51,779 nt of DNA, taken from positions 1 through 51,779 of the IMG/VR virus record IMGVR_UViG_3300032295_000393; one strand, given 5' to 3'. The number at the start of each line of letters is the position of its first letter. Position 1 is the stretch's first letter. The translations under genes and the position numbers were made by a program. This stretch comes from a virus. Taxonomy: Duplodnaviria > Caudoviricetes. Below, one piece after another: positions 564 through 50,840 of this stretch. The notes under the pieces are model-generated. The model ran no database searches. It had not been told where the DNA came from and was given only the letters and a program-made list of their open reading frames with translations.

Positions 564-574
564 GCGTTTAAACC

Positions 575-603
575 TTGTACAGCGTTTAAATGTGGTGTAT
601 AAA
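575..603 (+). promoter_or_regulatory. Sigma70-like promoter
   Basis: TTGTAC-17 bp-TATAAA. GTTTAAAC lies just upstream of the -35 and GTTTAAAT lies in the spacer. Confidence 0.65.
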
Positions 604-609
604 CTAGGC

Positions 610-684
610 ATCTGGGCTTTCACTTACGTCAACCGCCCCAGCGGACAATGCAATGATGACGTAGGGACTTTTGCATAAAGGAAT
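610..684 (+). ncRNA. Structured double-pseudoknot RNA leader, candidate Mu-gpT-DE-like element
   Basis: Pairings: CTGGG(612-616)/CCCAG(637-641), CTTACGTCA(623-631)/TGACGTAGG(657-665), CCG/CGG, ATGCAA(648-653)/TTGCAT(671-676). It lies directly downstream of a gpT-like gene. Confidence 0.6.
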
Positions 685-688
685 TTTC

Positions 689-1180
689 ATGGGATTCGCA
701 ACTCACCTTGGCCCTTGGTTGTTGGGCACTGTTAAAAACACAACCGGTAATACTGCTGGCACTATCCGCAACATGGGTGCTACAGCCGTTACTCAATCTT
801 TTGCAACCACTGTTGCCGATACCACTGCAACACGAGCTTTTGTTCTTCCCGCAGGCGCACAGATTATCAACATTTATGTTGACATCACTACCGCTTACGC
901 TGGTACGACTGGCAACACCATCACCATTCAAACCGCCGCAGGTTCTTCTTTAGCAGTTGTTGGCGGCGCAACTACCACCCCCTTGGCTATTGGTCGTGCA
1001 ACCACCACCCTGACTGGCGCTCAAGTCGCTACGTTTGTAAACGTGGGTGCAACTGATTTGATCGTTAACGTCATCTACGCTTGCGCTGGTACGGCAAGTG
1101 GTGGTGCGGCTACTGTGACTGTTGAGTACGTTGTCAGAGACTCCAATGGTTCTGCCAATCCAACTACATTCCAAAACTAA
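689..1180 (+). CDS. Virion structural protein (possible capsid decoration/cement)
   Basis: ATG at 689 with AAGGA RBS. Thr/Ala/Gly-rich beta protein (LPAGAQII) next to the capsid gene. Confidence 0.65.
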   Translation: MGFATHLGPWLLGTVKNTTGNTAGTIRNMGATAVTQSFATTVADTTATRAFVLPAGAQIINIYVDITTAYAGTTGNTITIQTAAGSSLAVVGGATTTPLAIGRATTTLTGAQVATFVNVGATDLIVNVIYACAGTASGGAATVTVEYVVRDSNGSANPTTFQN

Positions 1181-1186
1181 TCTGAC

Positions 1187-1210
1187 GGGGAGCTAGTCTC
1201 CCCTTTTTTT
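1187..1210 (+). terminator. Intrinsic terminator
   Basis: GGGGAG-CTAGT-CTCCCC followed by T7. Confidence 0.85.
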
Positions 1211-1226
1211 CTTTAAAGGATTAGCC

Positions 1227-1733
1227 ATGATGCAGACAGACGTAAAGCAAGCGCACATAAACGCAAGTGGTTTTATGGTGCTGGGCAGGAATCGTGTTCG
1301 TTCAATTTCTTTTACTGGCACTTCCAGCGCTGGTAGTGTTGCGTTATTTGACACAACTGTAGCTCCAGTCACAACAGCAACCTATGGAAGATCAGGAACA
1401 ACAGTTACTGTTTCTTCAACGGCGCATGGCCTTGTTACGGGTGATGTCCGTGGGTTTGATTTTGCGGCAGGAACTGGTGGGACAGCCACCAATGGCAACT
1501 ACACAATCACAAGACTGACCGCAGATACATTCACCATAACTGACATCAATTCAGGAAGCATTACCGCTGGCGCATCTCTTGTGTATGGAACTAAATGGCT
1601 TATGTCTTTTGATGTAGCCGCAAGTGACACATTCAACAATGCCCCAATTATTCCTGCTGAAGGGGTTTTGGTGGCAAACGGTGTCTACGCTCAAATTTCA
1701 AACTTGCTTGCTGTAAATATTTTCTACGGGTAA
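1227..1733 (+). CDS. Virion structural protein with inserted small beta-barrel domain
   Basis: AAGGA RBS. The segment TVTVSSTAHGLVTGD...NGNYTITRLTADTFT recurs in phage structural proteins, and a similar one occurs in the 16241 ORF. Confidence 0.6.
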   Translation: MMQTDVKQAHINASGFMVLGRNRVRSISFTGTSSAGSVALFDTTVAPVTTATYGRSGTTVTVSSTAHGLVTGDVRGFDFAAGTGGTATNGNYTITRLTADTFTITDINSGSITAGASLVYGTKWLMSFDVAASDTFNNAPIIPAEGVLVANGVYAQISNLLAVNIFYG

Positions 1734-1736
1734 CCC

Positions 1737-2489
1737 ATGCAACAAGAAGGCTCATTCAATCTGGCTGGTCGAAAAATAATGATCGGCATTCCTTCGTATG
1801 ACTACAAGGTGGCAACGAAGTGGGCAATCTCATTTGCTCATTTCTGCGTTGAAGCCAGCAAGCACGGCGTTCAAATCCAAGTGGGCAACGTATCTGGATG
1901 CTCTGTTGTTTCTCGTGCCAGAAATCTGATTGCGTATGACTTCTTGGAGTCTGACTGCACCGATCTGATGTTCATTGACTCTGACATCACCTTCAATGCA
2001 GATGATGTATTTCGCTTGATGGCTTGGAACAGCGACCCCAAGAAGGGGATTGTTGCTGGCATTCCAGTGGCTCGCAAAAAGGGCAAGGTCTACATCTCCA
2101 CGTTGGACATTGATGAAGACCGTCAGGTTCACATGAATCCAATGGGTCTTGTTCGTGCCCTGCGGGTTGCCACTGCATTCATGATCATCCGCCGTGATGT
2201 GTTCACCACCCTGCAAGATGCACACCCTGAGTGGGCGTACATCGATGACCGCTTGCAAGACGGCAAGACATATTCATTCTTTGATTTCAAGTCCACACCA
2301 GAAGGCTATGTCGGGGAGGATTACACCTTTTGTGACCGTGCCAGAGAGGTTGGATTTGAGGTTTGGATCGACCCCACCATCAAGCTTGGACACATGGGCA
2401 TCCATGAGTTTGAAGGCTCTTTTGGCGAGGATTATCTGTACCCAATGCTTCGTCCTCTTGAAGAGGACAAGAAGGTTGCAAATGGCTAA
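1737..2489 (+). CDS. Glycosyltransferase (GT-A fold, GT2-like)
   Basis: IMIGIP N-terminal strand, SRARN, DxD motif FIDSD, GEDYTFC and KLGHMG. Confidence 0.8.
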   Translation: MQQEGSFNLAGRKIMIGIPSYDYKVATKWAISFAHFCVEASKHGVQIQVGNVSGCSVVSRARNLIAYDFLESDCTDLMFIDSDITFNADDVFRLMAWNSDPKKGIVAGIPVARKKGKVYISTLDIDEDRQVHMNPMGLVRALRVATAFMIIRRDVFTTLQDAHPEWAYIDDRLQDGKTYSFFDFKSTPEGYVGEDYTFCDRAREVGFEVWIDPTIKLGHMGIHEFEGSFGEDYLYPMLRPLEEDKKVANG

Positions 2490-6688: not shown

Positions 6689-6877
6689 ATGGCAGGATTT
6701 GATGGAGTTGCCAAAAAAGGCAAAACAGTCGGTAAACAAATTGGGATTGACGGCCCAAAAGTACCCTCAATGGTGGGCGGTAAAGCCAAGCATGGCGTTA
6801 CTGGCGTAGCCATGAAGGCTATGGGTCGCAACATGGCTCGTGCAATGAACCAGAAACGCTCTGGTCGTGGAGGCTGA
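6689..6877 (+). CDS. Small basic protein
   Basis: AAGGAG RBS; DGVAKKGKT and MGRNMARAMNQ. Confidence 0.7.
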   Translation: MAGFDGVAKKGKTVGKQIGIDGPKVPSMVGGKAKHGVTGVAMKAMGRNMARAMNQKRSGRGG

Positions 6878-6878
6878 T

Positions 6879-7166
6879 ATGGGATACAGCAAAAAAATGA
6901 TGGGCAAAGAAGTGGGTGATGCTTCTGTGTATGCGCCTCCTCACAACATGAAGGGCAAGAGCATGACCATTAATCAGCTTGAAAACTCACGCAACAAGGC
7001 GGTTGACCCTAATACATTGTCAGCAGACAAAGTAACCACTCGCACTCCAGCAATGCGGGTGAGCTTGGGCAACCCCAATGCTGATGACATCAAAACCAGT
7101 GGCATTGAAGTCCGTGGTAGTGGTGCGGCAACCAAAGGTCGCATGGCTCGTGGGCCAATGGCGTAA
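6879..7166 (+). CDS. Small basic protein
   Basis: GGAGG RBS before ATG 6879; C-terminal KTSGIEVRGSGAATKGRMARGPMA. Confidence 0.7.
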   Translation: MGYSKKMMGKEVGDASVYAPPHNMKGKSMTINQLENSRNKAVDPNTLSADKVTTRTPAMRVSLGNPNADDIKTSGIEVRGSGAATKGRMARGPMA

Positions 7167-7176
7167 GGAATAGCCC

Positions 7177-7863
7177 ATGACATACAGCGAGTTGGTCACA
7201 GCCATCAAGGGATACACGGAGAACTCCTTTCCGTCTTCCCAAGATATGACTTCGACCGCCCAAATAAACACATTTATCAAGAACGCAGAGATTCGCATCT
7301 ACAACACGGTGCAAATGCCTCAGTTCAAAAAGAATGTTGCAGGGTCGCTGTCTTCTGGCAATAAGTATCTAAGCCTCCCTGATGATTTTTTAGCTGTTTA
7401 TTCGCTGTCTGTTTACACGACACCCGCTCTTGGGATATCAAGCCCTCAAAGCTATTTACTGGTCAAGGACGTAAGTTTTATTCGTGAAACTTACCCAGAC
7501 CCAACTTATGGCGGAGAGCCTGAGTATTACGCAATATTTGGCACAAACTCAACTTACCCATTGGTTGTTTCATTGATTGTTGGCCCGACACCAGATGCAA
7601 ATTATTCTGTTGAACTGCATTATTTTGCTTATCCAACATCAATTACGGTGTCTTCAACATCGTGGCTTGGCAATAACTTTGAAACCGTTCTTCTGTATGG
7701 TTCGCTTTTAGAGGCTTACACCTTTATGAAGGGTGAGCCAGATGTTATTGCTCAGTACCAGAAGCGATACGATGAGGCGTTGTCTCAACTCAAGCGTTTG
7801 GGTGATGGAATGGATCGTAGAGATGCATACCGCAACGGTCAAATAAGTATTCCTGTTAATTAA
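7177..7863 (+). CDS. Phage adaptor / tail tubular-type protein
   Basis: MTYSELVTAI...FIKNAEIRI...GPTPDANYSVELHY...LLYGSLLEAYTFMKGE. Confidence 0.65.
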   Translation: MTYSELVTAIKGYTENSFPSSQDMTSTAQINTFIKNAEIRIYNTVQMPQFKKNVAGSLSSGNKYLSLPDDFLAVYSLSVYTTPALGISSPQSYLLVKDVSFIRETYPDPTYGGEPEYYAIFGTNSTYPLVVSLIVGPTPDANYSVELHYFAYPTSITVSSTSWLGNNFETVLLYGSLLEAYTFMKGEPDVIAQYQKRYDEALSQLKRLGDGMDRRDAYRNGQISIPVN

Positions 7864-7874
7864 AGAAGAACATT

Positions 7875-8315
7875 ATGGCAATCACACAATGCATTCCAAC
7901 AAGCTTCAAAGTAGATATTTTGAGCGCCCAACAAAACTTCAGTTCGCTGAGTGGTGGCCCAAATGCTTTTAAGATTGCCTTGTACACATCTGCGGCAACG
8001 CTGAATGCCGCAACCACCGCATACACCACGACCAATGAAGTTGTTGGCACTAACTATACCGCAGGCGGGGAAGCACTGACAATCTCTACAGCGCCAACAT
8101 CAAGCGGGACAACCGCCTACATTTCGTTTTCAAATGTAACGTGGGCGGCATCAACAATCACCGCCCGTGGGGCATTGATTTACAACAACACTTTGGCTGG
8201 TAAAAATGCCGTGGCAATTCTTGATTTTGGTAGCGACAAGTCAAGTGTTGCAAGCACTTTCACAGTTCAATTCCCAACAGCATCAAGCACCTCTGCAATC
8301 ATAAGGATTTCATAA
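7875..8315 (+). CDS. Virion structural protein (paralogue of 8520)
   Basis: FKIALYTS...TAYTTTNEV.GT.YTAGG...ARGALIYN...DFGSDK, shared with the 8520 ORF. Confidence 0.7.
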   Translation: MAITQCIPTSFKVDILSAQQNFSSLSGGPNAFKIALYTSAATLNAATTAYTTTNEVVGTNYTAGGEALTISTAPTSSGTTAYISFSNVTWAASTITARGALIYNNTLAGKNAVAILDFGSDKSSVASTFTVQFPTASSTSAIIRIS

Positions 8316-8509
8316 TGGCAATCGTCACAACAACCAAAGGCGAAATGGATGACTCTTTGCTGGAAAAGCGAGAGGGTAATGTTGACAATGAAAATGAATT
8401 AACCACATGGGTTGAGTATTGGTTGGATGGGGAGCTTGTCCACCGATCTGCTCATGTGACTTTGAAAAAAATGCCACCTATTGGCGGCGAAACACAACCT
8501 CTAGGCTAA
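8315..8509 (+). CDS. Small hypothetical protein
   Basis: Coupled ORF; TWVEYWLDGELVHRSAHV. Confidence 0.7.
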   Translation: MAIVTTTKGEMDDSLLEKREGNVDNENELTTWVEYWLDGELVHRSAHVTLKKMPPIGGETQPLG

Positions 8510-8519
8510 AGGAAGCATC

Positions 8520-8996
8520 ATGGCAAATACTCAATCGATGACAACTTCGTTTTTGGGCGAAATTCTCACAGCAACACACAATTTCGGCACTGCCCCTGTT
8601 CGTGCATCAGGTGCGGCTGATTCCTTTAAGGCGGCTTTGTACCTGACCTCTGCCACCATAAATGCGGCTACAACCGCATACTCTTCAACGGGAGAGGTGA
8701 CAGGCACAGGTTACACCGCTGGCGGCGTGGCGGTGACCAACGCAACCGCACCAACAGCAACCAACTCCTCTGCAACTGCTGGCGTGGCGTACTGGACTCC
8801 ATCAGCAAGCATCACATACACAACTGTGACCTTGGCTACAGCATTTGATTGCGTTTTGATCTACAACTCTACACAGAGCAACAAGGCTGTGAGCGTCCAC
8901 ACCTTTGGCTCACAAACCATCACGGCTGGCACTTTCACTTTGACAATGCCTTCAAACACCACATCAACCGCTTTGTTGCGCTTGGCTACCACCTAA
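8520..8996 (+). CDS. Virion structural protein (paralogue of 7875)
   Basis: FKAALYL...AYSSTGEVTGTGYTAGG...LIYN...FGSQ. Confidence 0.7.
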   Translation: MANTQSMTTSFLGEILTATHNFGTAPVRASGAADSFKAALYLTSATINAATTAYSSTGEVTGTGYTAGGVAVTNATAPTATNSSATAGVAYWTPSASITYTTVTLATAFDCVLIYNSTQSNKAVSVHTFGSQTITAGTFTLTMPSNTTSTALLRLATT

Positions 8997-9006
8997 GAGG
9001 TAGTCC

Positions 9007-9834
9007 ATGTCTCTCGGCTGGGGTGACGGTACATGGAGTAGCGGCCCTTGGGGTGGAGGGACGGTATATCCAACAGGGAATGAGGCGACTGGCTCTGTTG
9101 GATCAGTCTCGTCCAGTCTGACTGTTGCATTAAGTGGGGTATTGGCTTCTGGGAATGTTGGGGACGTTGCTGAGACAAACAACCCGACAGAAGATGGAAA
9201 TATTGCTTATGGAAACGTAGGCAATGTAGGAGGCTCTCTTGTAGTCGCCTTGTCTGGGGTTTCTGCATCTGGTTCTGTTGGCACTGTTGTCCACAGCAAA
9301 AATGTTGCACTGACTGGAGATTTGGCAAGCGGCGGTGTAGGCACGGTTTCTCGTGGAGCCACGCTACTGGCCTTGACGGGGGCGGCGGCTTCAGGATTTG
9401 CAGGGACGGTAACTCACGGCAAAGAAGTTGCGTTGACTGGTGATGAGGCGGCGGGTGCGGTTGGCACTGCTGTTTCCAGTAGGGCAATTGAATTGACCGG
9501 TGATGAGGCTTATGGCTATCCGGGCGGGGTAGTTGTTCCGATTAACAGCAATCAGGCTAATGGCTCGGTTGGCTCGGTTTCTTTTGAGGTGACTGTCAAC
9601 CTAACCGGCAATCAGTCAGGCGCTGTTGTGGGAACGGTTGGTAACGGAGCAAGAACATTTGCTTTAACAGGAAATCAAGCATCAGGGGCGGTAGGCTCTG
9701 TGGTTGCTGTTTATTGGAAGATCATAGATGACAATCAGACCGCAAACTGGCAAAATATCAATAACCCGCAGACTCCCAGTTGGTCATCCGTTGACGATGA
9801 TCAGACAGTTAATTGGGAAGAAGTAGCAACTTGA
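9007..9834 (+). CDS. Repeat-rich tail/fibre protein
   Basis: About 21-aa repeats VALTG..ASG.VGTV; Trp-containing termini. Confidence 0.65.
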   Translation: MSLGWGDGTWSSGPWGGGTVYPTGNEATGSVGSVSSSLTVALSGVLASGNVGDVAETNNPTEDGNIAYGNVGNVGGSLVVALSGVSASGSVGTVVHSKNVALTGDLASGGVGTVSRGATLLALTGAAASGFAGTVTHGKEVALTGDEAAGAVGTAVSSRAIELTGDEAYGYPGGVVVPINSNQANGSVGSVSFEVTVNLTGNQSGAVVGTVGNGARTFALTGNQASGAVGSVVAVYWKIIDDNQTANWQNINNPQTPSWSSVDDDQTVNWEEVAT

Positions 9835-9842
9835 GGTAAATC

Positions 9843-10673: not shown

Positions 10674-10683
10674 AGGAGAAATT

Positions 10684-11937: not shown

Positions 11938-12122
11938 AAATCATTACAGCCAAACTTTGTAAAGACTTTTTTTCAAACGCAGTTATTTCTGTTTCTGTTG
12001 TTGATGAACTTGGCATAAGCCGAGGCATCCCTTTTGACCCTGCCAACACAGACTACCAAGCCTACCTAAAGTGGCTTGCAGAGGGCAACACACCACTTCC
12101 CGCAGATGAGGAGAACACATAA
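11934..12122 (+). CDS. Small tail-fibre-associated protein (putative chaperone)
   Basis: IPFDPANTDYQAYLKWLAEGNTPLPAD motif directly after the fibre gene. Confidence 0.7.
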   Translation: MKIITAKLCKDFFSNAVISVSVVDELGISRGIPFDPANTDYQAYLKWLAEGNTPLPADEENT

Positions 12123-18394: not shown

Positions 18395-18422
18395 TTGTCA
18401 AACTGTTTAAACATGATACTAT
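18395..18422 (+). promoter_or_regulatory. Sigma70-like promoter for the ejection-protein operon
   Basis: TTGTCA-16 bp-TACTAT with extended -10 TG; GTTTAAAC (18405-18412) in the spacer. Confidence 0.6.
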
Positions 18423-41180: not shown

Positions 41181-41543
41181 ACACTTTCGTTAAAAATTTT
41201 TGGTGAGCCAGCAAGTAAAGCCAACAGTCGCAGGGCGGTGATGGTCAACGGCAAATCAATGTTCATCAAATCCGCAAAGGCGTTGGGCTATGCCAAGATG
41301 TTTAAACAACAAGCTGTTGTGCCGCCTTTGTTGAAATTTCTTTCGGAGGATGTCGCTGTTGTGATTCGCATTTGGTATGCATCAAGGCGACCTGATTTGG
41401 ATGAGTCGCTGATCCTCGACCTGTTGCAGGATGTTGCTTACCTCAACGATAGACAAGTCAAAGAGAAGCACATCTACTGGATGGGTGTAGACAAAGAGAA
41501 CCCTCGTTGCGAGATTGAGGTCAGCCCCATACAGACAAAATAA
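41175..41543 (+). CDS. rusA: RusA-like Holliday junction resolvase
   Basis: GEPASKANSRR, RRPDLD, D..Q...Y.NDRQV and NPRCEI. Confidence 0.8.
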   Translation: MQTLSLKIFGEPASKANSRRAVMVNGKSMFIKSAKALGYAKMFKQQAVVPPLLKFLSEDVAVVIRIWYASRRPDLDESLILDLLQDVAYLNDRQVKEKHIYWMGVDKENPRCEIEVSPIQTK

Positions 41544-41614
41544 AAGCCACCTCAAGGGTGGCTTCTACCGATCTTTCGATCTGCTATACAGGAGGCTTAA
41601 TCATGTCTAGGTGC
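41537..41614 (-). ncRNA. Candidate small RNA B (about 75 nt) with anti-RBS loop UGAUUAAGCCUCC
   Basis: Own promoter (41619-41646) and own terminator (AAGCCACC/GGTGGCTT plus TTTTATTTT on the minus strand). The loop is complementary to GGAGGCTT RBSs elsewhere in the genome. Confidence 0.7.
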
Positions 41615-41618
41615 GTGA

Positions 41619-41646
41619 ATTGTAGCCCCGCTATCACTCGTGTCAA
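41619..41646 (-). promoter_or_regulatory. Near-consensus sigma70 promoter for sRNA B
   Basis: Minus strand TTGACA-16 bp-TACAAT. Confidence 0.75.
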
Positions 41647-41681
41647 CACTCGTTCGCAAAATATTTTGGGATAATGCGATT

Positions 41682-41758
41682 GCAGTTGCCGTTTGTTTTT
41701 TCAATGCTTTCTGAACGGCAATCTTTGAGAGATGTTTAAACGCATCTCTCTTTTTTTT
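41682..41758 (+). ncRNA. Candidate small RNA A (about 77 nt)
   Basis: Extended -10 TGgGATAAT (41667-41675). Stem GTTGCCGTT/AACGGCAAT with a 20-nt U-rich loop, then terminator GAGAGATG/CATCTCTC plus T8. Confidence 0.65.
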
Positions 41759-41885
41759 GTCTGGAGTTTCTGGCGTTTGCCGGGAAAACTGCTCCGGGGT
41801 TGATTTGCAATTGTTTAAACAGCGCACAAAAATATTTTGCGCTTACCCCATTGTGTCGCCCCTGTTTCGTGGATTAAGATTCACT

Positions 41886-42096
41886 CCTCTTTTGATCGTT
41901 GGGAGAAATCGACAGCAGGGTCAAGAGGTTTATTGTCGGTACTGTTGGAAGTGCATTAGATACCGAAGGGGGTGGCGAAGACAGAGCCCCTTGCACGAGA
42001 AGTCTGTCGGGGCGCATCATGCGTGAAGGCTCATCTAGGATAGGCTAGGTGCGCCTTGCGCTCCCCCAAGGGGGGCGCAAAGAGTTGATATCAACT
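41886..42096 (+). other. Highly structured non-coding segment upstream of HNH/primase (ncRNA leader or replication origin)
   Basis: Promoter-like TTGTGT-18-TAAGAT at 41851-41880, at least five hairpins, a possible pseudoknot and the 14-bp palindrome AGTTGATATCAACT. Confidence 0.5.
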
Positions 42097-42118
42097 ACAT
42101 ACAAATTGGAAATCTCAT

Positions 42119-42394
42119 ATGCCTTATGTGAACAAAGCAAGACCTTACAAAAAAGAATATGAGCAACAGCTTGGGCGTAGTGAACAACCAAAGCGCAATG
42201 CGAGAGAACGTGCAAGGTATGAGATGGACAAGAATGGTGTTGACCGCAAGGGTAAAGACATCGACCATGTAGTGCCACTATCCAAGGGAGGAACCAACGC
42301 ACCATCAAACTTGAAATTAAAAACACCATCAAAGAATCGATCATTCACACGCAACAGTGACCACACTGTCAAAGTGAACAGACCGAAAAAGTAA
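42119..42394 (+). CDS. Small HNH endonuclease
   Basis: GKDIDHVVPLSKGGTNAPSNL...NRS. Confidence 0.8.
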   Translation: MPYVNKARPYKKEYEQQLGRSEQPKRNARERARYEMDKNGVDRKGKDIDHVVPLSKGGTNAPSNLKLKTPSKNRSFTRNSDHTVKVNRPKK

Positions 42395-42409
42395 ATCATC
42401 AGGAGGCTT

Positions 42410-44131
42410 ATGAAATTTGCAGGATCATCTGCAATGAGTGGCATCGACCATCTCGTTGCGTCAATTGCGGCACACAAACCCGAACGTGCCGTCTGTCCCG
42501 AATGCTCTGACGAGCGTTCAAAAAAAGGCGATAAAGATTTAGCCATTCACCCGAAAGAGCGTGGATGGACTTACCACTGCCATCACTGCCACATCGGCGG
42601 TTTCGTCTTCTTCCCATCAAATCAAATTCAACCGCCCAAGCGTCAGGAGCAAAACGTGATTCCACTCAGAGCCTTTCAACAAACACAACTTGAACCACAG
42701 CACTTTGCATTTTTGAAAGCACGAGGGATATCAGAACAGACCGCCCTTGACATGAAGTTGTTTGCCGCAAATAAATATTTCAATCGAATCCAAAAACAAA
42801 CTGATGCAATCGGTTTTCCTTATTTCAAAAATGGTCAGTACATCAATGCGAAGTATCGAAGTATTGAATCGAAGGACTTTACGCAAGACACAGGAGGCGC
42901 TCATGTATTCTTTGCAATTGACAAGGTTGATCCAACCAAGCCGATGATCATCGTGGAGGGCGAAATAGATGCACTGACATTGATTGAATGCGGCATTGAG
43001 AATGTTGTCAGCGTCCCTGCTGGCGCTCCCATCAAAGTCAGCGATGGCAAGGTTGCACCAAGCGAGGATAAAAAATTCAGTTTTATTTGGGATGCATTTG
43101 AAACAATTGAAAAGCTCCCCTACGTTGTCATTGCAGTTGATACCGACACTGCTGGTCAAGCCCTTGCAGAAGAGTTGGCAAGACGCATAGGCAAAGACAA
43201 ATGCCGCATCGCCAAATCAGAGTTCAAAGATTTAAACGAGGCTTTCCTTGCAGAAGGGGCGACCAAGGTTAAAGAAATTATTGATGCCGCAGAGCCGTAC
43301 CCAGTTGCTGGCTTGTCGTCCGCCACAAAATTTGAAGACCGTTTAAACGATCTGTGGAGCAAAGGCACGGGCAAGGGTGTATCGACCGGCTACTCAAACG
43401 TGGATCAGATTTACACCGTGGCTGAAGGTCAACTCACCATCGTGACAGGCTACCCATCCAGCGGCAAATCAAATTTCGTTGATCAACTTATGGTCAACCT
43501 CGGGCGATCCAATGATTGGAAGTTCGCCCTTTGTTCATTTGAGAACGCACCCGAAGTTCACATCTCCCGCCTGATGGAGATTTACAAAGAGAAGCGATTC
43601 TTTGAAGGCACAAATCGGATGACAGACGATGACCGCAAAGATGCCTTTGATTGGGTGCAACAGCATTTTTTATTCTTGGACTCAGAGGGCGTTGAACCAG
43701 CGTCAATTGATTCGATATTGGATCGGGCAAGGATTGCAGTTGTTCGCATGGGCATACGAGGGCTGGTGGTTGACCCCTACAACTACATTGAAAATAAATC
43801 AGGCATGGCAGAGACAGAGTTCATATCGTCCATGCTGACCCGCATACAAGCGTTCGCAAAGGCTTATGGAGTCCATGTGTGGTTCGTGGCTCACCCAGCC
43901 AAAATAACTCGCTCAGGCATGGATTTACCTCGTCCTGACGGCATGGCTATCAGTGGATCAATGGCGTGGTGGGCAAAGGCTGATTGCGGCATGACCGTGC
44001 ATAGAACCAAGACCAACGATGTTGAGATTGCGATTTGGAAATGTAGGTATCGGTGGGTTGGAACGCAAGGCGAAACCCAGTTGAATTATGAAAAGGTCAC
44101 CGGAACGTACAAAGTGGCTGATGACTTCTAA
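42410..44131 (+). CDS. Primase-helicase (T7 gp4/Twinkle-like)
   Basis: Zn finger CPEC...CHHC, TOPRIM EGEIDAL and DTD, Walker A GYPSSGKS, VVDPYN, VAHP and ISGS. Confidence 0.92.
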   Translation: MKFAGSSAMSGIDHLVASIAAHKPERAVCPECSDERSKKGDKDLAIHPKERGWTYHCHHCHIGGFVFFPSNQIQPPKRQEQNVIPLRAFQQTQLEPQHFAFLKARGISEQTALDMKLFAANKYFNRIQKQTDAIGFPYFKNGQYINAKYRSIESKDFTQDTGGAHVFFAIDKVDPTKPMIIVEGEIDALTLIECGIENVVSVPAGAPIKVSDGKVAPSEDKKFSFIWDAFETIEKLPYVVIAVDTDTAGQALAEELARRIGKDKCRIAKSEFKDLNEAFLAEGATKVKEIIDAAEPYPVAGLSSATKFEDRLNDLWSKGTGKGVSTGYSNVDQIYTVAEGQLTIVTGYPSSGKSNFVDQLMVNLGRSNDWKFALCSFENAPEVHISRLMEIYKEKRFFEGTNRMTDDDRKDAFDWVQQHFLFLDSEGVEPASIDSILDRARIAVVRMGIRGLVVDPYNYIENKSGMAETEFISSMLTRIQAFAKAYGVHVWFVAHPAKITRSGMDLPRPDGMAISGSMAWWAKADCGMTVHRTKTNDVEIAIWKCRYRWVGTQGETQLNYEKVTGTYKVADDF

Positions 44132-44160
44132 AGCGTTTAAACGCTGAGTGTTTTCAGGGC

Positions 44161-44199
44161 AAAAAAAATCCCCCCGAAGCCGTGGAGCTAAGGGGGGAA
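44161..44199 (-). terminator. Intrinsic terminator of the early operon
   Basis: Minus strand TCCCCCC...GGGGGA hairpin followed by T8; converges on the primase gene end. Confidence 0.75.
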
Positions 44200-44210
44200 C
44201 TGGTCAGAAT

Positions 44211-44456
44211 TTAGTGAATGGGTGAATCCTCGTCAGGCATCTCGCTTGCGTACTTCACGGTGATGCTGGTGACAACAGCTTTCAAAATGTTCGTGAGGTC
44301 TACGCCCGACTCGAATGCGGTATCCGCAAGCAGGGACGCAAGCATAGGCAAGATGACCTTTATCTCGTGACCCTCAAGAACATCGCAGACTTTGTCTCTG
44401 AGTTCTATGTAGGTGTCGAAGTGCTTTTCAATTTCTTCTTGGGTTAATTCACTCAT
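44211..44456 (-). CDS. Hypothetical acidic protein
   Basis: AAGGA RBS; clean ORF. Confidence 0.65.
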   Translation of the reverse strand: MSELTQEEIEKHFDTYIELRDKVCDVLEGHEIKVILPMLASLLADTAFESGVDLTNILKAVVTSITVKYASEMPDEDSPIH

Positions 44457-44471
44457 GATGTTTTCCTTTGT

Positions 44472-44666
44472 TTAGTTTTGCTTGTTGAAGTAATCGCCTA
44501 GTGGACGGCTAAATTTTTGTGGGTTGCGACCCATCTGCATACCAAGACCGAAGACGGCATCCTCTCTATTTTTTGCGGTGAATCCAAGACCCAGCCTGCC
44601 GATCTCATCACGATATTCTGCCCTCCACATTTTCAGTGTCTGTATGTATTCGACTTTGATTCCCAT
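44472..44666 (-). CDS. Hypothetical protein
   Basis: AAGGAAAG RBS. Confidence 0.65.
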   Translation of the reverse strand: MGIKVEYIQTLKMWRAEYRDEIGRLGLGFTAKNREDAVFGLGMQMGRNPQKFSRPLGDYFNKQN

Positions 44667-44709
44667 GATGCTTTCCTTTTTAAAAGATGGGGAGCAGGCT
44701 CCCCTTGGT

Positions 44710-45516
44710 TTACTTCAATACTTTCAGAACCTTGTTGAGCGATGCGCTGGTGAGGTCTTGAATGTTGGTCACGTTCTCTGCGTGTGTAAAGCACTCGGCA
44801 ACCTCGGTGTGTCCAATGCCAATTGCAATCAACGTGATGCCTTGCTTGTCAGCAAGCTTTTGCAGGTACTGCATATGCGGCTGGTTGTAGCCATTCGCAT
44901 CAGTCAGCAAGAACAAAACTTTGCGTGGCTCTTTGCGTATAGCCAAGTCCTCAATTGCAAGAGCGATGGACGAGTAGTCAGGCGTGGAGCCCTGAGCGCA
45001 TTGAGCGATAGCGCCAAGCTTTGCAGATGCCTTGCCCAGTGATTCACCCCACTTCTTGAATGGGATGAAGATAGGCTTCTCGACTCGCACTGCTATGTCT
45101 CGTGATGCACCTGTTGCATTCTGCACCTGTGCATCATCGCCGCCGTAAAAACCTGTCACCGAAAACTCAGCGTTGGCCTTGTCGAATATCTTGCATAGCT
45201 GAACAGCAACCTGACCAGCAAGGGCGATCTCGCCGCCATAGGTCATTGAGCCCGAGCAGTCGATCATGATGCTGACCGCTGACCGCTCTGCCTCACGCAC
45301 CTGACGCTTGCTGAAGATGTTTGCATCACCACAGGCGTAGCGTGTAAACGCTTTGCGATCAACCCTGCCCGACTCCTCGTGTGTAGACCAGCTAACCAAA
45401 TCATTCGAGCGCAAGATGCGAAGCAAGTTGGCTCGTGTTGCACCCATGCCTGATGGCGTGAGCGTGTAGTTGTTTTTGTATGTCTTCTCTGCTCTGTCTT
45501 TGTCAACGTGTCTCAT
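44710..45516 (-). CDS. vWA (MIDAS) domain protein, CobT C-terminal-like
   Basis: SGRVD, IMIDCSGSM (DxSxS), GSTP, LLTDA and IAIGIG. Confidence 0.85.
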   Translation of the reverse strand: MRHVDKDRAEKTYKNNYTLTPSGMGATRANLLRILRSNDLVSWSTHEESGRVDRKAFTRYACGDANIFSKRQVREAERSAVSIMIDCSGSMTYGGEIALAGQVAVQLCKIFDKANAEFSVTGFYGGDDAQVQNATGASRDIAVRVEKPIFIPFKKWGESLGKASAKLGAIAQCAQGSTPDYSSIALAIEDLAIRKEPRKVLFLLTDANGYNQPHMQYLQKLADKQGITLIAIGIGHTEVAECFTHAENVTNIQDLTSASLNKVLKVLK

Positions 45517-45525
45517 GTTTACCCC

Positions 45526-46647
45526 TTAATAAAAAGCTATCTCTTCAACCTTTGGTCTTGCAACAGCAGGACGATGACCCTTGGCATCGACCTTTGACTT
45601 GTGCTGACCAAGCTCGTTCTGAATGAACTTGTCAAACTCAGGACGGCGGCGCTTGTCGGTGAATGGATCGTTGCTGTACCCATTGCCGCCCTTGTCGCTT
45701 GGCTTGCCTGACTCACCGGCTTGATCACCCTGTTCACCCTCGCCATCACCCTGCTCAGGCTTGTCAGAACCGTCACCAGCGCCCTGATCTGCGCCGTCTG
45801 ACCCCTTACCCTCACCGTCAGCTTTATCGCCTTGCTGATCGCCTTGGTCACCAGCCTGATCACCCTGCTGGTCGCCGCCCTGATCCCCTGCTTGGTCGCC
45901 CTGCTGGTCATCACCTTGCTCGCCTTGCTGACCGTCATCACCCTGCTGACCGCCGTCATCTTGCGGCTCTTGCGGAGGTTGCTTCTTCTGCTCCTCGTGG
46001 GCTTGCTGAAGACGTTTAAACAACTCGACTGCAATGTCTGCAATGGTGGTTGTGTTCTTTGCTTTCTGTGCGCTGGTCAATGCCCACTCAATGTCGGCTG
46101 ACCAAGGCGACACGCCAAGCACTGTCGGGTGACTGATGGGGTAACCGTTCAAGCGCCGCCCCTCAATGGCGAGCATGAATGGCACGTTCTTCAGATCGTC
46201 AGGCTTGACGTAACCGTTCTTGTCCAGCACTGCATTGGTCAACTCTTCAAACAATGCCTTGCTGTTGGGCGCATAGCCTGAGTGAATGACGCACTGCTCA
46301 ATGCGTGGGTCTTCAAGACCGTTGATCAATGAGCCAACGTATGAGCCATGCTTCTCACGAGCGTTGTCCCAAGGTGCGTTGTCGGTGAACCATGCATGAC
46401 CAAGCTCGTGCAAGGCGTAGCCAACGGTGTTGTTGAATACCTTGCGAGAGATGGTTGCCATGTCATCGATGGATGGGAAGATCAACTTCACGCTTTGCAA
46501 TGTCTTTGCACTGGAGCGTCTGAAGATGATCCCCGCTGTCTTGCCTGACCACAGAATGTCGAGCTTGTCGATCTTCTGTCCGCTTGCTTGGAAGACACGC
46601 TCAAGCGTTGATGCAACGCCTCGTTTAACGTCTGTACCTAAAAACAT
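45526..46647 (-). CDS. CobT N-terminal-like protein with HExxH motif and Q/G/D-rich tail
   Basis: GYALHELGHAWFT...NGLEDPRIE; low-complexity acidic linker. Confidence 0.75.
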   Translation of the reverse strand: MFLGTDVKRGVASTLERVFQASGQKIDKLDILWSGKTAGIIFRRSSAKTLQSVKLIFPSIDDMATISRKVFNNTVGYALHELGHAWFTDNAPWDNAREKHGSYVGSLINGLEDPRIEQCVIHSGYAPNSKALFEELTNAVLDKNGYVKPDDLKNVPFMLAIEGRRLNGYPISHPTVLGVSPWSADIEWALTSAQKAKNTTTIADIAVELFKRLQQAHEEQKKQPPQEPQDDGGQQGDDGQQGEQGDDQQGDQAGDQGGDQQGDQAGDQGDQQGDKADGEGKGSDGADQGAGDGSDKPEQGDGEGEQGDQAGESGKPSDKGGNGYSNDPFTDKRRRPEFDKFIQNELGQHKSKVDAKGHRPAVARPKVEEIAFY

Positions 46648-46656
46648 AAAGCCCCC

Positions 46657-48162
46657 TTACTTGGCTAAGAATTTTTTGAATTCCACGGTGTCAACCGTGG
46701 CGGTGAAGATGCCTACCAACTCAGCCTCGCAGTCAGCGGGAAACTTGTTGACGATGGCAGAGCGAAACGCTGTCACCGTTGGGATGCCCTTGGTCACTGC
46801 TCTTGCCCACGCAAACAACTGTCGCAATGATGGAGGCTGAGTCAGTACACCAGCCCTTGCTTTCTCACGAGCCACGTTGGCGAAGCGCACGAGAACGTCA
46901 GCGGCATCGATGTTTAAACCTGTCCGCTTGTTGATGAGTGCAACCTCGTCATCATGTGGCAGGTACTCGAACTCCAGCGTGTAGCTGAAGCGATCAATGA
47001 ACGCACTGTTCTGATCACGAACACCAGCGAAGTTGCCGGACTGGTCACCGTGACCGTTGCTGTTGTCAGCGCAGAAGAATGCAACGTGCGATGCAACAGG
47101 GATGCGAGTGCCTGTCTCGGCGATCACGATGGCACGGTTGGCAGAGCGTTCGCACAAGGCGTGGAGAGCGGCGAGGTTCTGCGCTCTTGCGAATCCGATC
47201 TCGTCCAACAGCACGAGCGAACCAGTGTGCTGGATGGCTTGGGCAATGATCCCTGCTTTCCATTCGACTGAACCGTTCTTGACGATGTTGCCGCCGATGA
47301 ATTCGCTACGCTCCATCGCCTCATCAAAGTTGATGCGGAACAGTTTGCGCTTGAGCCTTGCGCTCAGTTGTTCGCAGAATGCAGTCTTGCCTGTACCACG
47401 CTCACCAGCAAGCCACACGTTGTCGGGCAGTGCATCGCTCAATGCACACAAAGCTTGGTGCAGGTTGGCGGGGTTGAAGACGTAGTCATCGACAACAGCG
47501 CAAGCCTCTGCATCATTCCAAACCAGCACCTCCAAGTCCTCGAAGTTGACAACCTCGCCGTCCTGCTCGTACCACAGGGGAGCGGGGAACACCTCCGATG
47601 CCTTGCGTGTCTCGAACACTGCCACGCTGTTGGCAATGACCTGTAGTTGGTCAGGTGTGACCGTCTTCTTCAGAGCCTTGAACAGGTTGCCCACTTCAGA
47701 GTGGATGGCGTTGTCGATCTTGCCGTAGTCCACGCCTGTGATCTTGCTGACCTCAGTGTCGAGACGTTTAAACAGGTCACGCTCAATGCTGTCAGCTTTC
47801 GAGATGACTGCACCTCTCAGTTGGCGAACCTCGTCCAGCGCCTTTGATGCAAGCGTGTTGGTTGACGAGACGATGGCTTGCGTGTTGCGAACCTCGGTGA
47901 TTGCATCGTTGACCAATGCGACTGAAGAGTCAGCCACTGGTGTAGTGGACTGCTTGGCGTTGATCACTGCTGTTGACAGTGGCACGAGGTCACGAATCTC
48001 GCCAATGCTGATGCCGCCCCTGTTGACGATGTCGGTCAGGATGCTGACCACACGCACCTTGTCGGCGCTGACCTCGGAGCCGTAGCCGGTCTGCACGAGA
48101 GCGGCGTTGAGTTTGCCTGTCTGAATGAGTGACAGAGCCTGAGAAATTTTTGCTGTTGACAT
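46657..48162 (-). CDS. MoxR/CobS-like AAA+ ATPase
   Basis: Walker A GERGTGKT, Walker B LLDEI, ADNSNG and NSAFIDRF, sensor SLRQ. Confidence 0.9.
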   Translation of the reverse strand: MSTAKISQALSLIQTGKLNAALVQTGYGSEVSADKVRVVSILTDIVNRGGISIGEIRDLVPLSTAVINAKQSTTPVADSSVALVNDAITEVRNTQAIVSSTNTLASKALDEVRQLRGAVISKADSIERDLFKRLDTEVSKITGVDYGKIDNAIHSEVGNLFKALKKTVTPDQLQVIANSVAVFETRKASEVFPAPLWYEQDGEVVNFEDLEVLVWNDAEACAVVDDYVFNPANLHQALCALSDALPDNVWLAGERGTGKTAFCEQLSARLKRKLFRINFDEAMERSEFIGGNIVKNGSVEWKAGIIAQAIQHTGSLVLLDEIGFARAQNLAALHALCERSANRAIVIAETGTRIPVASHVAFFCADNSNGHGDQSGNFAGVRDQNSAFIDRFSYTLEFEYLPHDDEVALINKRTGLNIDAADVLVRFANVAREKARAGVLTQPPSLRQLFAWARAVTKGIPTVTAFRSAIVNKFPADCEAELVGIFTATVDTVEFKKFLAK

Positions 48163-48180
48163 GATAGGAAGCCTCCTGAT

Positions 48181-48771
48181 TTAAACGAGTTGAAATTGAG
48201 TGACGTTGTCACTGTCTGACTTGCCATGCGAACACCAAGGCAAGCCTGTTGATGACCACTTGGAGGTGAGTCGAACCTTGTAGCCGCACGTTGGACACTG
48301 AGCCAACAACATACGAGTTGATTGCACCTTGCGAACAGCAGAGATGTTCAGCTTGGCGTGTGGGTAGTCGCCCAGTGATTGAATCAATGGAGCGAAGTTG
48401 TCTCTGAATGCATCACCAGCGACAGTTGCAGTGACCTTGCCTTCAAGCCACAAGGCACGAACGCAAGGCACGAAACGTCCACGGTGACCATCGCCATCAG
48501 TCGCCGCATGGGACAACTCGTGGCAGAGAATTGCGAACGCTTCAACAGCGTCATCAACCACAGGGCTGATGCAGATTTCATGGTGACCATCGCTTGATGC
48601 GGCTGGTGACCAATGCTCACCGATGGCACGGTGTTGCGAGCGAGCCTTGCTCGATGGGAAACCACAGGTCACCCTGATCTTGTCAGGCAGGGGGAAGCCG
48701 TTGGCATTGAAGATGGAGCGAAGCTCCTCGACAGCGTGGGCAAGCCACTCTTCACGGTTGGTAGCAGTCAT
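48181..48771 (-). CDS. SprT-like zinc metalloprotease with C-terminal zinc ribbon
   Basis: REEWL...LCHELSHAA...GH...F; CPTCGY...PWC. Confidence 0.75.
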   Translation of the reverse strand: MTATNREEWLAHAVEELRSIFNANGFPLPDKIRVTCGFPSSKARSQHRAIGEHWSPAASSDGHHEICISPVVDDAVEAFAILCHELSHAATDGDGHRGRFVPCVRALWLEGKVTATVAGDAFRDNFAPLIQSLGDYPHAKLNISAVRKVQSTRMLLAQCPTCGYKVRLTSKWSSTGLPWCSHGKSDSDNVTQFQLV

Positions 48772-48773
48772 GT

Positions 48774-48929
48774 TTAAACCTCCTTGTGATTGAGAGCCTC
48801 AGTCACAACGTGACCAAGGAAGAAACCGCCTGCGGCGATAACGAAATTCCACAGCGGTATGCCATCGCTGTAGCTGAAGCCGATAAAAAGAAAAGCCGCT
48901 GATGCGAGCGAGACGAGAACGTAATACAT
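48774..48929 (-). CDS. Small two-TM protein
   Basis: GGAGGCTT RBS, start MYYVL; hydrophobic. Confidence 0.65.
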   Translation of the reverse strand: MYYVLVSLASAAFLFIGFSYSDGIPLWNFVIAAGGFFLGHVVTEALNHKEV

Positions 48930-48990
48930 GGATAAGCCTCCATAAGTTGAACAAGACCGCCTCACGGCGGTTTCGGCTAATCAAGCCTCA

Positions 48991-49236
48991 TCAGTTGTCC
49001 TGTGCGTTTGCGATCTGTTCATCAGTCAAGCCTGCGAACACTGGTAGCTCCCGAATGGGCTTGGTGCGGTCTTCAAGGCCACGCTCTGTATAGGGGTTGG
49101 ACAAGGCGGCAAGTTGTTCGCATCGGCATCCGAACCCATCGATAGCGGGGCAGTCAGGATGGTGCGACTCTTCTGTCATCACGATGGTGTCGCCCCCTTG
49201 GATCGTGTTGATGGTGACGTTGGTGAATGTGTTCAT
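48991..49236 (-). CDS. Hypothetical protein (HxxxC...CxC)
   Basis: GAGAGG RBS; HHPDCPAIDGFGCRC. Confidence 0.6.
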   Translation of the reverse strand: MNTFTNVTINTIQGGDTIVMTEESHHPDCPAIDGFGCRCEQLAALSNPYTERGLEDRTKPIRELPVFAGLTDEQIANAQDN

Positions 49237-49238
49237 GT

Positions 49239-49376
49239 TTAAACCTCTCTATGTGTACCGTTGATGATGGTTTGTGCGTAGGCAATGCAAGCCAACGCAA
49301 TGTCTTTGTCGCCCTGTGCGAGCGCCTTGTACGCCTCTGCAAGCGCCTCTGTCAGTAGCTCTAAATCCTGTTTCAT
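49239..49376 (-). CDS. Small helical hypothetical protein
   Basis: AAGGA RBS, start MKQDL. Confidence 0.6.
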   Translation of the reverse strand: MKQDLELLTEALAEAYKALAQGDKDIALACIAYAQTIINGTHREV

Positions 49377-49386
49377 GCGTGTCCTT

Positions 49387-49728
49387 TCAGATGCCAAGGG
49401 GAAGCTCGTTGTTCGCAAGCTTGTACTTGATCGACTCACCAGCATCAACGCCGATGGCAATCAAACGATTCTGAGCAAGCTCAAACGCCTTGCTCATGGT
49501 GTATGCAACCTCAATGTCGGTTACATCAGCGTTCGTGCCGCCACTTGACCAGTGCAGGGTCACTTTCGGCAATGCACCGAAGCTGTAGCGTTCGATGACG
49601 TAGCAAATGCCCTCTGAGCCCCAATGCGTGGGAGCAGAAAAGGTGTAGAAGATTTCACCGAGCGGTTTGCCGCCGTTATTGCGAACGGTGTTGTTGATTG
49701 TTTCTGTCACGTTGAATTTGCGGAACAT
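49387..49728 (-). CDS. Hypothetical early protein
   Basis: GGAGGCTTAACC-ATG, start MFRKF. Confidence 0.65.
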   Translation of the reverse strand: MFRKFNVTETINNTVRNNGGKPLGEIFYTFSAPTHWGSEGICYVIERYSFGALPKVTLHWSSGGTNADVTDIEVAYTMSKAFELAQNRLIAIGVDAGESIKYKLANNELPLGI

Positions 49729-49791
49729 GGTTAAGCCTCCATTGAAGTGCGACATTGCACTGATATGCCCATCGGGCATACCGCTGAAATG

Positions 49792-49995
49792 TCAGCCTCT
49801 GATTTGGTAAACATCAGAGCCGGAAGAGGTGACGCATTCACCTATTTCGAGCATCCACTCGAATGTGTTACGCACGAATGCGTTTTTGATCTCGTCAAGC
49901 GAGTTGTACTCAGTCACAGAGCTATCTGTGCGAGTGGCTGAAGTGTTCGCACTATTGCGAACCCAATCACCAGTGTGGTGATGAACGAATTGCAT
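49792..49995 (-). CDS. Hypothetical early protein (first gene of operon)
   Basis: GGAGGCTCA-ATG, start MQFVHH. Confidence 0.6.
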   Translation of the reverse strand: MQFVHHHTGDWVRNSANTSATRTDSSVTEYNSLDEIKNAFVRNTFEWMLEIGECVTSSGSDVYQIRG

Positions 49996-50363
49996 TGAGC
50001 CTCCAGTTGTTTGATGCGGATTGCATCCACAAGCACACTGCGAACAATGCACTTGAAGTGGAATCCACTTGCCGCCCTTATTCACGAGGGCGTGGCATGG
50101 GGACAGTGCCTTGCGTCCGCTCCTCTCAGAGCGGTCAGATCGTTCGCTGTTGCCCCCAATGTGTGTAGGTGGTGGGCATGGTGAGAACGGTCAACGTAGG
50201 TGACTGTCGTAGTCATCAGGGCTGTTGCTCTCTGTCTGTCCCCTGTGTGTGTAGGTGGGTGACACGTTGAGAGCCTGTACCTGACGGGCTTTCTGCTCGG
50301 GCTAGAGTGTTTGCGAGTCACTCATCGAAGCCGTCTTTGTCGTTTGATGCAAGCACCAAACTG
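49996..50363 (-). ncRNA. Long structured 5' leader of early operon with duplicated stem-loop domain
   Basis: Two hairpins present the identical 13-mer CCACCTACACACA; further stems; no convincing ORF. Confidence 0.5.
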
Positions 50364-50369
50364 AAGCGA

Positions 50370-50397
50370 ATGCTAGCACGTTTACACACTTCTGCAA
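50370..50397 (-). promoter_or_regulatory. Sigma70-like early promoter
   Basis: Minus strand TTGCAG-16 bp-TAGCAT with extended -10 TG; GTGTAAAC in the spacer. Confidence 0.55.
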
Positions 50398-50440
50398 CAG
50401 GTTGCGAACAAAAAAACCACGTTTTCTGCAAATCGTTATA

Positions 50441-50453
50441 AATCAATGGGTTA
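50441..50453 (+). promoter_or_regulatory. IHF consensus site
   Basis: AATCAATGGGTTA matches WATCAANNNNTTR, with an A-tract upstream; about 45 bp from the early promoter -35. Confidence 0.5.
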
Positions 50454-50840
50454 CGAGCGTTTCGACCCGCTCCAGCCTACCAAAATGAACTTTGGTATTA
50501 ATTGTGGGGCTGACGGCAATGAATACTTGAGTTTTCAATGCGAACGATTGGGGCGAGGGACAAGGCGAAGCCGAATGGACTGATGCTTGATAGGCAGTGA
50601 CTGCTGTAGGGAAGAGAGGCGATGAGGTGAAGAGCATGAGCTTGTGGTGAGCTTGTGCTGAGGAGTGTTTAAACGCAAACCGTTGGCTTGCTGGTGATCA
50701 CCATCTTACTGGTGTACGCCGAGCTTGCAGTTGTGAGGTGCATCGATGCGTTATGCGAACGAGTTGCGTTGTGTGTGTCGTGCTGAGAAAATGATGAGAA
50801 CAATTGCAGAGTGTTTAAACCAAGCGAAAGGGATCACAAC

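Follow-up and report, generated by a model that had tools for sequence, protein, structure and literature searches.

Why would a phage genome carry dozens of copies of one short palindrome, and what reads them? The question is raised by a stretch of tailed-phage DNA (IMG/VR record IMGVR_UViG_3300032295_000393, positions 1 to 51,779; hereafter the window, 51,779 nt), which holds 39 exact copies of the 8-bp palindrome GTTTAAAC. The array is real and under selection, and the evidence makes it very likely that it belongs to a protein-DNA system. The candidate reader is the phage's own SprT-like protein (196 amino acids; 48181..48771, minus strand), which was recognized by phrog_6361 (E=1e-37), alignments, a structural model, fold matches and co-occurrence with the word. 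Judged from sequence, the C-terminal zinc ribbon of this protein probably binds the word, and we hold this part of the reading with good confidence. We lean, less firmly, towards the view that the array is an operator/stoperator-like set at which the SprT-like protein would act as a repressor.

An abundant word under selection

The array extends from 566 to 50820 and consists of the 39 copies of GTTTAAAC, nine of GTTTACAC/GTGTAAAC and nine of ATTTAAAC/GTTTAAAT; one variant (51581) lies outside this span. The original prediction located the 39 copies by eye, and every coordinate proved exact with no copy overlooked. Its estimate of about one expected copy agrees with dinucleotide shuffles (n=100; mean 0.68, largest 4). 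It also argued that protein sequence does not explain the word, and synonymous codon shuffles bear this out, yielding 1.8 +/- 1.2 copies (maximum 7 in 1000) against 32 gene matches, which correspond to 31 sites in called genes because one site falls in two overlapping open reading frames (ORFs). GTTTAAAC occupies 32 of the 43 positions in the window where synonymous codons permit it, often by way of the uncommon TTA codon: 16/23 [GRSC]-L-N contexts and 16/20 x-F-K-[QRHPL] contexts are filled, and the V-stop frame is used at 48772 and 49237. By location, 31 sites are inside called ORFs, two are at junctions of stop codon, ribosome-binding site (RBS) and start codon, and six are intergenic. Part of the signal is taken up by a fifth-order Markov model, but only as a result of the sites being in its own training data. 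Spacing is irregular (coefficient of variation 1.09; Kolmogorov-Smirnov test against uniform, p=0.07), and a 7.8-kb tail-fibre block (6700-14500) is free of GTTTAAAC, a gap of a length that has a probability of about 0.06. Within the window, no flanking consensus was found beyond a weak preference for Y before and R after the word.

The sites are conserved in related phages. When synonymous-site conservation was checked, as the original prediction had proposed, 73 of 89 site-by-locus comparisons were intact, whereas neighbouring coding 8-mers predict 30.6 (relatives aligned in 15 stretches at 72-91% identity; the comparisons are not independent). The longest single aligned relative keeps 19/24 sites, and both gains and losses occur among relatives. 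Five complete site-rich relatives hold 29-47 copies each, and in the six genomes of the window lineage the coding sites are 53-76% saturated. One-off variants, described as frequent in the original prediction, are indeed so, and they are not of equal rank. Pooled over the window and the five complete relatives, the one-base neighbours exceed codon shuffles by 5.8x for GTGTAAAC, 2.7x for ATTTAAAC, 2.2x for CTTTAAAC, 1.8x for GTATAAAC and 1.2x for GTTGAAAC, and the remaining seven neighbour pairs stand at or below the shuffled value (<=1x). The top neighbour, GTGTAAAC, differs by an internal transversion, a change that would not be favoured if old sites were decaying; the pattern looks like a binding spectrum. 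This transversion, which gives the main word of distant phages, disfavours the biased repair or recombination process that had been suggested as an origin of the word.

As for the genome itself, the window is partial: the capsid gene is cut at base 1, and the large terminase and portal genes are not present. Complete relatives measure 58-64 kb. The genes in the window include those for an Rz-like spanin, an endolysin, ejection-type proteins, a primase/helicase, Erf, an exonuclease, RusA and an AAA/VWA module, and no tRNA genes were found in it. A putative ejection protein of 3160 amino acids (23876-33358) with ART-PolyVal, DUF7178 and LPD38 domains contains 10 of the sites.

Association of the word with an SprT-like gene

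Viral contigs that carry the SprT-like gene also carry the word. All 82 gene-bearing viral loci were enriched (p<0.001), with 837 sites against 13.0 expected; each held 4-23 sites, and the expectation never exceeded 0.59. These loci are related, grouping into 41 protein clusters at 95% identity, 26 at 85% and 8 at 75%. Among 80 loci fetched by a shared virion protein, 10 were enriched at p<0.001. A search of 47 whole records of these loci found the gene in one only, and that record has 32 sites. All five records with shared virion genes and a completeness of 90% or more lack the SprT-like gene and hold 0-1 sites, and the other five site-rich records of this set are 30-49% fragments. The converse search, by the pattern of site pairs alone, used the first 80 of 125 loci from 5/64 parts of the collection. 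Strong enrichment was seen in 14, of which 11 carry the gene (three are contigs counted before, and two loci are one contig); the three without it are 17-21% fragments. A weakly enriched locus of 4.4 kb in this set likewise carries the gene. Some relatives without GTTTAAAC (L070, L074-L077; L054, L055, L060) are enriched in ATGCGCAT (<=7 vs 0.23) or CCTGCAGG (<=10 vs 0.78).

In cultured phages, the word goes with the ribbon motif. We examined 22 of 164 records with a homologue. All 14 phages that keep the QxTR ribbon carry arrays of GTTTAAAC or GTTTACAC, and in all eight with HEXXH intact and the ribbon diverged there are 0-1 sites. GTTTAAAC occurs 34 times in Venkman, 17 in R5C, 7 in Mica, 7 in Arya, 5 in ECO1230-10 and 4 in Persinger. 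GTTTACAC, counted in either orientation, occurs 14 times in Percival, 17 in each of Maureen, Liebe and Emotion, 22 in Zeta1847, 33 in Honk, 35 in Marky and 41 in JackieB. The counts of ECO1230-10 and Liebe were compared with a reversed control only. The motif kept in the 14 site-rich phages is K-Q-x-T-R..C..R-x-[TS]. The GTTTAAAC-rich phages infect Methylophilales, Dinoroseobacter, Burkholderia, Enterobacter, Escherichia and Pseudomonas, and the GTTTACAC-rich phages infect Arthrobacter, Microbacterium and Streptomyces. Orientation ratios of GTTTACAC were 8:6, 12:5, 15:2, 13:22 and 18:15; since the variant occurs either way round, binding would be to double-stranded DNA.

The SprT-like gene is the sole window gene present in all 10 unrelated site-rich phages tested, and this co-occurrence supports the suggestion of the original prediction that the word is a binding site for a phage factor. 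The binders named there, the ribbon-helix-helix-like ORFs at 34275 and 38230, are missing from all 10 and were rejected as readers. The AAA/VWA module was rejected on the same ground, being absent from unrelated site-rich phages. Its AAA ATPase, peptidase-like and VWA genes (44710-48162, minus strand) follow the SprT-like gene and are present in six site-rich and not in five site-poor relatives.

The protein itself has two parts. Residues 1-140 form a zincin-like domain with the HELSH motif (H84, E85, H88, H96), and a flexible linker follows. The C-terminal zinc ribbon contains QSTR, C159, C162, R167, W172 and C180, with a CxxC..C..H pattern. H84, E85, H88 and H96 are invariant in two alignments (30 and 19 sequences). 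Among 149 distant representatives, HEXXH is found in 146, QxTR in 127 and R-x-[TS]-x-x-W in 123, and the family counts 1183 clusters at 50% identity (E<=1e-30). Conservation across these more than 1000 clusters thus extends to the catalytic site and to the putative reader alike. The predicted model of the window protein has a mean confidence (pLDDT) of 86.5, with the linker poorly predicted. Fold searches with the full model covered residues 1-132; the VIA fold matches were abylysin (Z 8.3), SPRTN (6MDX; Z 8.2, root-mean-square deviation 3.0 over 96 residues), selecase (7.7) and Wss1 (7.3), all middling scores, and the best Foldseek E was 0.006. A sequence search of the PDB gave no match below E 0.8. 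PF10263 matches 25/35 relatives, four of them above the cut-off, and does not match the window protein. For the C-terminal domain, the Atlas lead is PF17283 at 0.78 only, and a stand-alone ribbon model has a pLDDT of 52. A homodimer prediction scored 0.20 (mark 0.42), which says nothing either way.

Other dispersed words were seen as well. Six cluster EB Microbacterium phages (L197-L200, L390-L397), whose ribbon has diverged to SRSGKSIKL..SISK, carry GCGATCGC 8-16 times each, with 62 copies in ORFs vs 20.4 in codon shuffles; Percival, Honk, Zeta1847 and Emotion have none, Maureen has 12 vs 5.7, and all six EB phages are one lineage. It is possible that the reader of the EB phages has been retargeted to GCGATCGC. 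Phage AlexAdler (cluster EA, L398-L399) carries yet another dispersed word, GGCCACAC, 37 times vs 2.5 expected.

Site positions and a possible repressor

What would binding do? The positions of the sites bear on this; all promoters in the following are predicted elements. In the window, a site at 48772..48779 separates the ATG of the SprT-like gene from its RBS (GGAG) and also provides the V-stop of the upstream ORF; it is intact in 5/7 aligned relatives and a one-off variant in the other two. The site at 49237..49244 is placed in the same way between the RBS and the ATG of ORF 48991-49236 (minus). Upstream of the operon of the SprT-like gene, a predicted early promoter on the minus strand (50370..50397; TTGCAG-16-TGc-TAGCAT) has GTGTAAAC (50380-50387) in its spacer. 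A predicted late promoter on the plus strand (18395..18422; TTGTCA-16-TACTAT), upstream of putative ejection-protein genes, has GTTTAAAC (18405) in its spacer. The site at 18405 is kept before the same -10 element in L001, L002, L003, L005 and L016, and it is missing in L004, L006, L063 and five non-enriched relatives. One further site, with two variants (584, 597), lies over a weaker promoter-like sequence found by eye (566..604, plus strand; TTGTAC-17-TATAAA), just past the capsid-gene terminator and beyond the reach of the aligned relatives. Two sites (50667, 50813) occupy the divergent region before the small terminase gene (50667..50820), and both are kept in 5/5 aligned relatives.

Similar positions are found in unrelated phages. 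Of 11 cultured positives, eight have a site 23-70 bp ahead of the annotated SprT-like start (negatives, 0/4), and in two more it lies just inside the annotated start, which is perhaps called too early. In R5C a site precedes the operon that holds the gene. AZ phages have the word directly after the -10 of a repeated TTGCGT promoter-like sequence, in Honk a site is in the spacer of 10/10 strong promoter matches, and in Arya, ECO1230-10 and Mica a site is 6-8 bases past a -10. In the window lineage, within 4 kb upstream of the gene, a site is in a same-strand promoter-like spacer in 22/50 distinct loci (267 sites) and in an opposite-strand spacer in 12/50, several of these opposite-strand matches being near-perfect (e.g., TTGACA-16-TAGAAT); downstream of the gene the number is 0 (119 sites), and the background is 1.5-3% per site on both strands. 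Since the same word or a one-letter variant accompanies the gene in unrelated phages and takes up promoter positions, it is likely the protein's binding site. In addition, many relatives (L099-L162) have a site inside the SprT-like gene at about +415, at a conserved R-L-N position. A near-consensus promoter of the window (TTGACA-16-TACAAT; 41619-41646, minus) is without a site; sites 41734 (in a hairpin) and 41813 lie upstream of it.

Observations on lysogeny by others point in the same direction. The AZ phage Powerpuff is described as forming homoimmune lysogens with no identifiable repressor (PMC8758107), and EH phages are presented as turbid, integrase-bearing Microbacterium phages without a repressor (PMC7302621). 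The cluster AZ preprint gives clear plaques for Liebe, whose SprT-like gene is frameshifted, and turbid plaques for the near-identical Maureen (bioRxiv 10.1101/2025.05.26.655371). We verified in sequence that Liebe, compared with Maureen, has a one-base insertion early in the gene. Because of the site positions, the site upstream of the protein's own gene and these outside data, repression seems the most likely outcome of binding. The zinc ribbon would grip GTTTAAAC; initiation, also that of the SprT-like gene, would be blocked at sites that lie in promoter spacers or cover the start point, and sites inside genes might add roadblocks or keep a local protein pool in the manner of stoperators. 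In temperate relatives, the SprT-like protein would be the missing immunity repressor. In the window lineage, where integrases are mostly missing, it could sustain a quiet state without integration, shut out related phages or set timing. The protease site is conserved and may be a switch or an effector, acting by self-cleavage in the linker or by cutting proteins met at a site; the switch is speculation by analogy with SPRTN.

A wider and more tentative proposal, which we would not put above a possibility, is a widespread and so far unrecognized class of phage repressors without a helix-turn-helix (HTH), in which a ribbon reads a dispersed 8-bp word and a fused metalloprotease is either a switch (DNA-triggered self-cleavage without RecA) or a cutter. 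On the same tentative view, AZ and EH phages would owe their immunity to this protein, as the repressor that has been missing, and changes in the ribbon would retarget the array (GTTTAAAC, GTTTACAC and possibly GCGATCGC in EB).

Several points weigh against repression by the SprT-like protein. The positive test of upstream spacers was designed after two genome-wide tests of the window lineage that were not significant: 13/268 promoter matches had a site vs about 11 expected, and 8/311 sites were in spacers vs 5.7. Only 6/64 distinct lineage loci have a site within 60 bp upstream of the gene start, and 239/311 lineage sites are in called ORFs, late genes included, which would be superfluous for a pure promoter repressor. 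The ribbon-negative phages come from two lineages only (EB and Mesyanzhinovviridae), JackieB is site-rich although its ribbon Trp and one Cys are missing, and within the freshwater lineage the SprT-like gene is inseparable from the whole early arm. Liebe and Maureen differ at three more positions, and their plaque types are second-hand database notes in the preprint (bioRxiv 10.1101/2025.05.26.655371). AZ and EH phages hold another repressor candidate, a sigma-like HTH protein. In the complete site-rich relatives, a tyrosine integrase is missing in 4/5 and a serine recombinase in 5/5; thus, lysogeny is not evident in the window lineage. This lineage, with 29-47 sites that are mostly in genes and with integrases mostly missing, is the main difficulty for a repressor. 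Intergenic sites of the lineage number 70/311 vs 35 expected (crude ORF calls). A promoter scan of 41400-51779 gave five matches vs 7.3 in shuffles, none on a site, and no lifestyle statement for Venkman was found in the accessible part of 10.1101/2020.04.27.064238.

The in-gene sites are better accounted for if the protein binds the word and has protection as its chief job. A protease tethered every 1.3 kb would cut host proteins on phage DNA, such as silencers, restriction or other defence proteins, or crosslinked proteins, and promoter sites would serve only for feedback. The invariant catalytic residues, the HEXXH in 146/149 representatives, SPRTN and Wss1 among the nearest folds, and the saturation of coding sites in a lineage mostly without integrases are all consistent with this, as is the finding that SPRTN digests DNA-binding proteins only when DNA is present (PMC5128726). 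Protection leaves unexplained the precise promoter-spacer positions in unrelated phages and the clear plaques of Liebe, and the 4-7 sites of integrase-linked relatives are too few for a coat. We regard it as rather unlikely to be the chief function, although it fits the in-gene sites of the integrase-poor lineage better, and the promoter positions worse, than repression does; both may hold.

It is improbable that the protein, once bound to the word, instead switches on transcription or sets its timing, or labels DNA for replication, packaging or ejection. Such a role might be suggested by sites at predicted promoters of both the early and the late kind and at start junctions, and by one at the very tip of the genome in Percival and Maureen. 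However, Liebe is viable with a broken copy of the gene, and the sites lie over a -10, over a start point or in a normal spacer of 16-18 bp. Such overlapping positions are typical of repressors.

Still less probable is that a host protein, or host methylation or repair, makes or reads the word in the manner of HIP1, with the gene merely sharing hosts or lineages. Like HIP1, the word is an 8-bp palindrome conserved in ORFs (PMC5861425), and its terminal variants ATTTAAAC and CTTTAAAC are enriched, a pattern reported for HIP1 (PMC4390886). The hosts of the site-rich phages, however, span Actinobacteria and alpha-, beta- and gamma-proteobacteria, and among phages that share the host M. foliorum, those of cluster EH are word-rich and those of EB and EA are not; this same-host contrast largely refutes a host origin. 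The original prediction proposed looking for enrichment in candidate hosts, and none was found in E. coli K-12 (87 copies vs 98 in the reversed control), whose species hosts a site-bearing phage. Two bacterial genomes that carry a homologue are likewise without genome-wide enrichment (10 and 6 copies vs controls of 35 and 9). Bacterial homologues (L164:6481-7029, L165:9998-10573, L166:10001-10591) have a single GTTTAAAC per 9-20 kb, inside or just after the gene, and a GTDB scan (21/64 parts) gave four loci with no host identified. A host-imposed word tied to GCWGC avoidance was also rejected, as many site-rich loci do not avoid GCWGC. The window itself has one copy each of GCWGC and CGWCG and is strongly depleted of GGCC, CCGG and AGCGCT, which is common to its closest relatives only and suggests host restriction systems. 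An artefact of composition, codon use or assembly is refuted by the codon shuffles, by conservation in relatives and by enrichment in independent contigs and cultured phage records.

If repression is right, these data give a named protein and a named site to a published question: immune lysogens are formed, or are likely to be, by AZ and EH phages in which no repressor can be recognized (PMC8758107, PMC7302621). The family is large and its hosts lie in Actinobacteria and three proteobacterial classes; thus, many phages that count as lytic because they show no known repressor may be capable of a quiet state. As a molecular design, a protease-repressor with sequence specificity would be new.

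Comparison with known systems

The likeness to HIP1 drawn in the original prediction holds for the statistics only, namely over-representation and conservation in ORFs. Both are hyper-abundant 8-bp palindromes conserved inside and between ORFs, but HIP1 is chromosomal, GC-rich and associated with cognate methyltransferases, whereas GTTTAAAC is phage-borne, AT-rich and associated with a protease-like gene (PMC4390886, PMC5861425). Pfam finds no methyltransferase among the 81 window ORFs, as had been noted, and in the complete site-rich relatives an N6/N4 methylase (PF01555) is found in 1/5 and a D12 methylase (PF02086) in 0/5. For HIP1, periodic spacing on a scale of 10-90 kb is described; the window, at 52 kb, is short for that scale, and its sites are spaced irregularly. 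A HIP1-like host or methylation origin is not supported. Chi-rich lambdoid phages share with the window a dispersed short word under selection (PMC12315714). Chi, however, works for an enzyme of the host and abounds in phages without recombination genes, which is the opposite logic (PMC12315714); here, the word accompanies a phage gene, and the window has Erf, an exonuclease and RusA.

On the side of the protein, IrrE and CapP appear among the Foldseek matches of the window protein. IrrE and CapP cut separate repressors. SPRTN and Wss1 resemble the window protein in having a HEXXH zincin fold followed by a small zinc domain, and DNA-triggered self-cleavage has been shown for SPRTN (PMC5128726). 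SPRTN is activated by the form of DNA (single- or double-stranded), with no sequence specificity apparent in the source (PMC5128726), whereas the candidate here would be specific for one word. An SprT protein of Adephagia is listed as non-toxic (PMC11373665); its kinship to the present family is uncertain, and it was left out of the evidence. The 'SprT-like protease' of clusters AZ, EH and EB (bioRxiv 10.1101/2025.05.26.655371) is of the same family, at 33-48% identity. The preprint lists it as a DNA-binding repressor candidate with a lysogeny link via Liebe and predicts an SPRTN-like function; its main text names no binding site and contains neither GTTTAAAC nor 'palindrom' (bioRxiv 10.1101/2025.05.26.655371). 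We found no paper that links the word to a phage protein or gives the site of an SprT-like protein, in literature that did not extend to subscription journals and supplements. The protein is already published as a repressor candidate; the present analysis adds evidence from promoter spacers and ties the protein to the repressor that is missing in AZ and EH phages.

The closest parallel in arrangement is the stoperators of cluster A phages (L5, TipsytheTRex; PMC9283540). Both systems have more than 20 sites per genome; those of cluster A lie in promoters and elsewhere, and some of those here lie in predicted promoters. Both are tied to one phage gene, and both have word variants between groups and a link to lysogeny in temperate members (PMC9283540). 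They differ in that cluster A sites are asymmetric 13-mers oriented with transcription and located in short intergenic gaps (PMC9283540), whereas the sites here are palindromes of 8 bp, or variants facing either way, and most of them fall within genes. The cluster A reader is a monomer with HTH and Stoperator domains (PMC9283540), and no match to an HTH/Stoperator-type repressor family was found among the 81 ORFs of the incomplete window; the candidate here is a HEXXH zincin with a zinc ribbon. In cluster A, the bound protein halts initiation as well as elongation and confers immunity; for the SprT-like protein, the pointers to such effects are the indirect ones from Powerpuff, the EH phages and Liebe. 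Being palindromic, unoriented and mostly coding, the GTTTAAAC array appears to fall outside the cluster A stoperator class, and the SprT-like protein that likely binds it would be a kind of phage repressor so far unrecognized.

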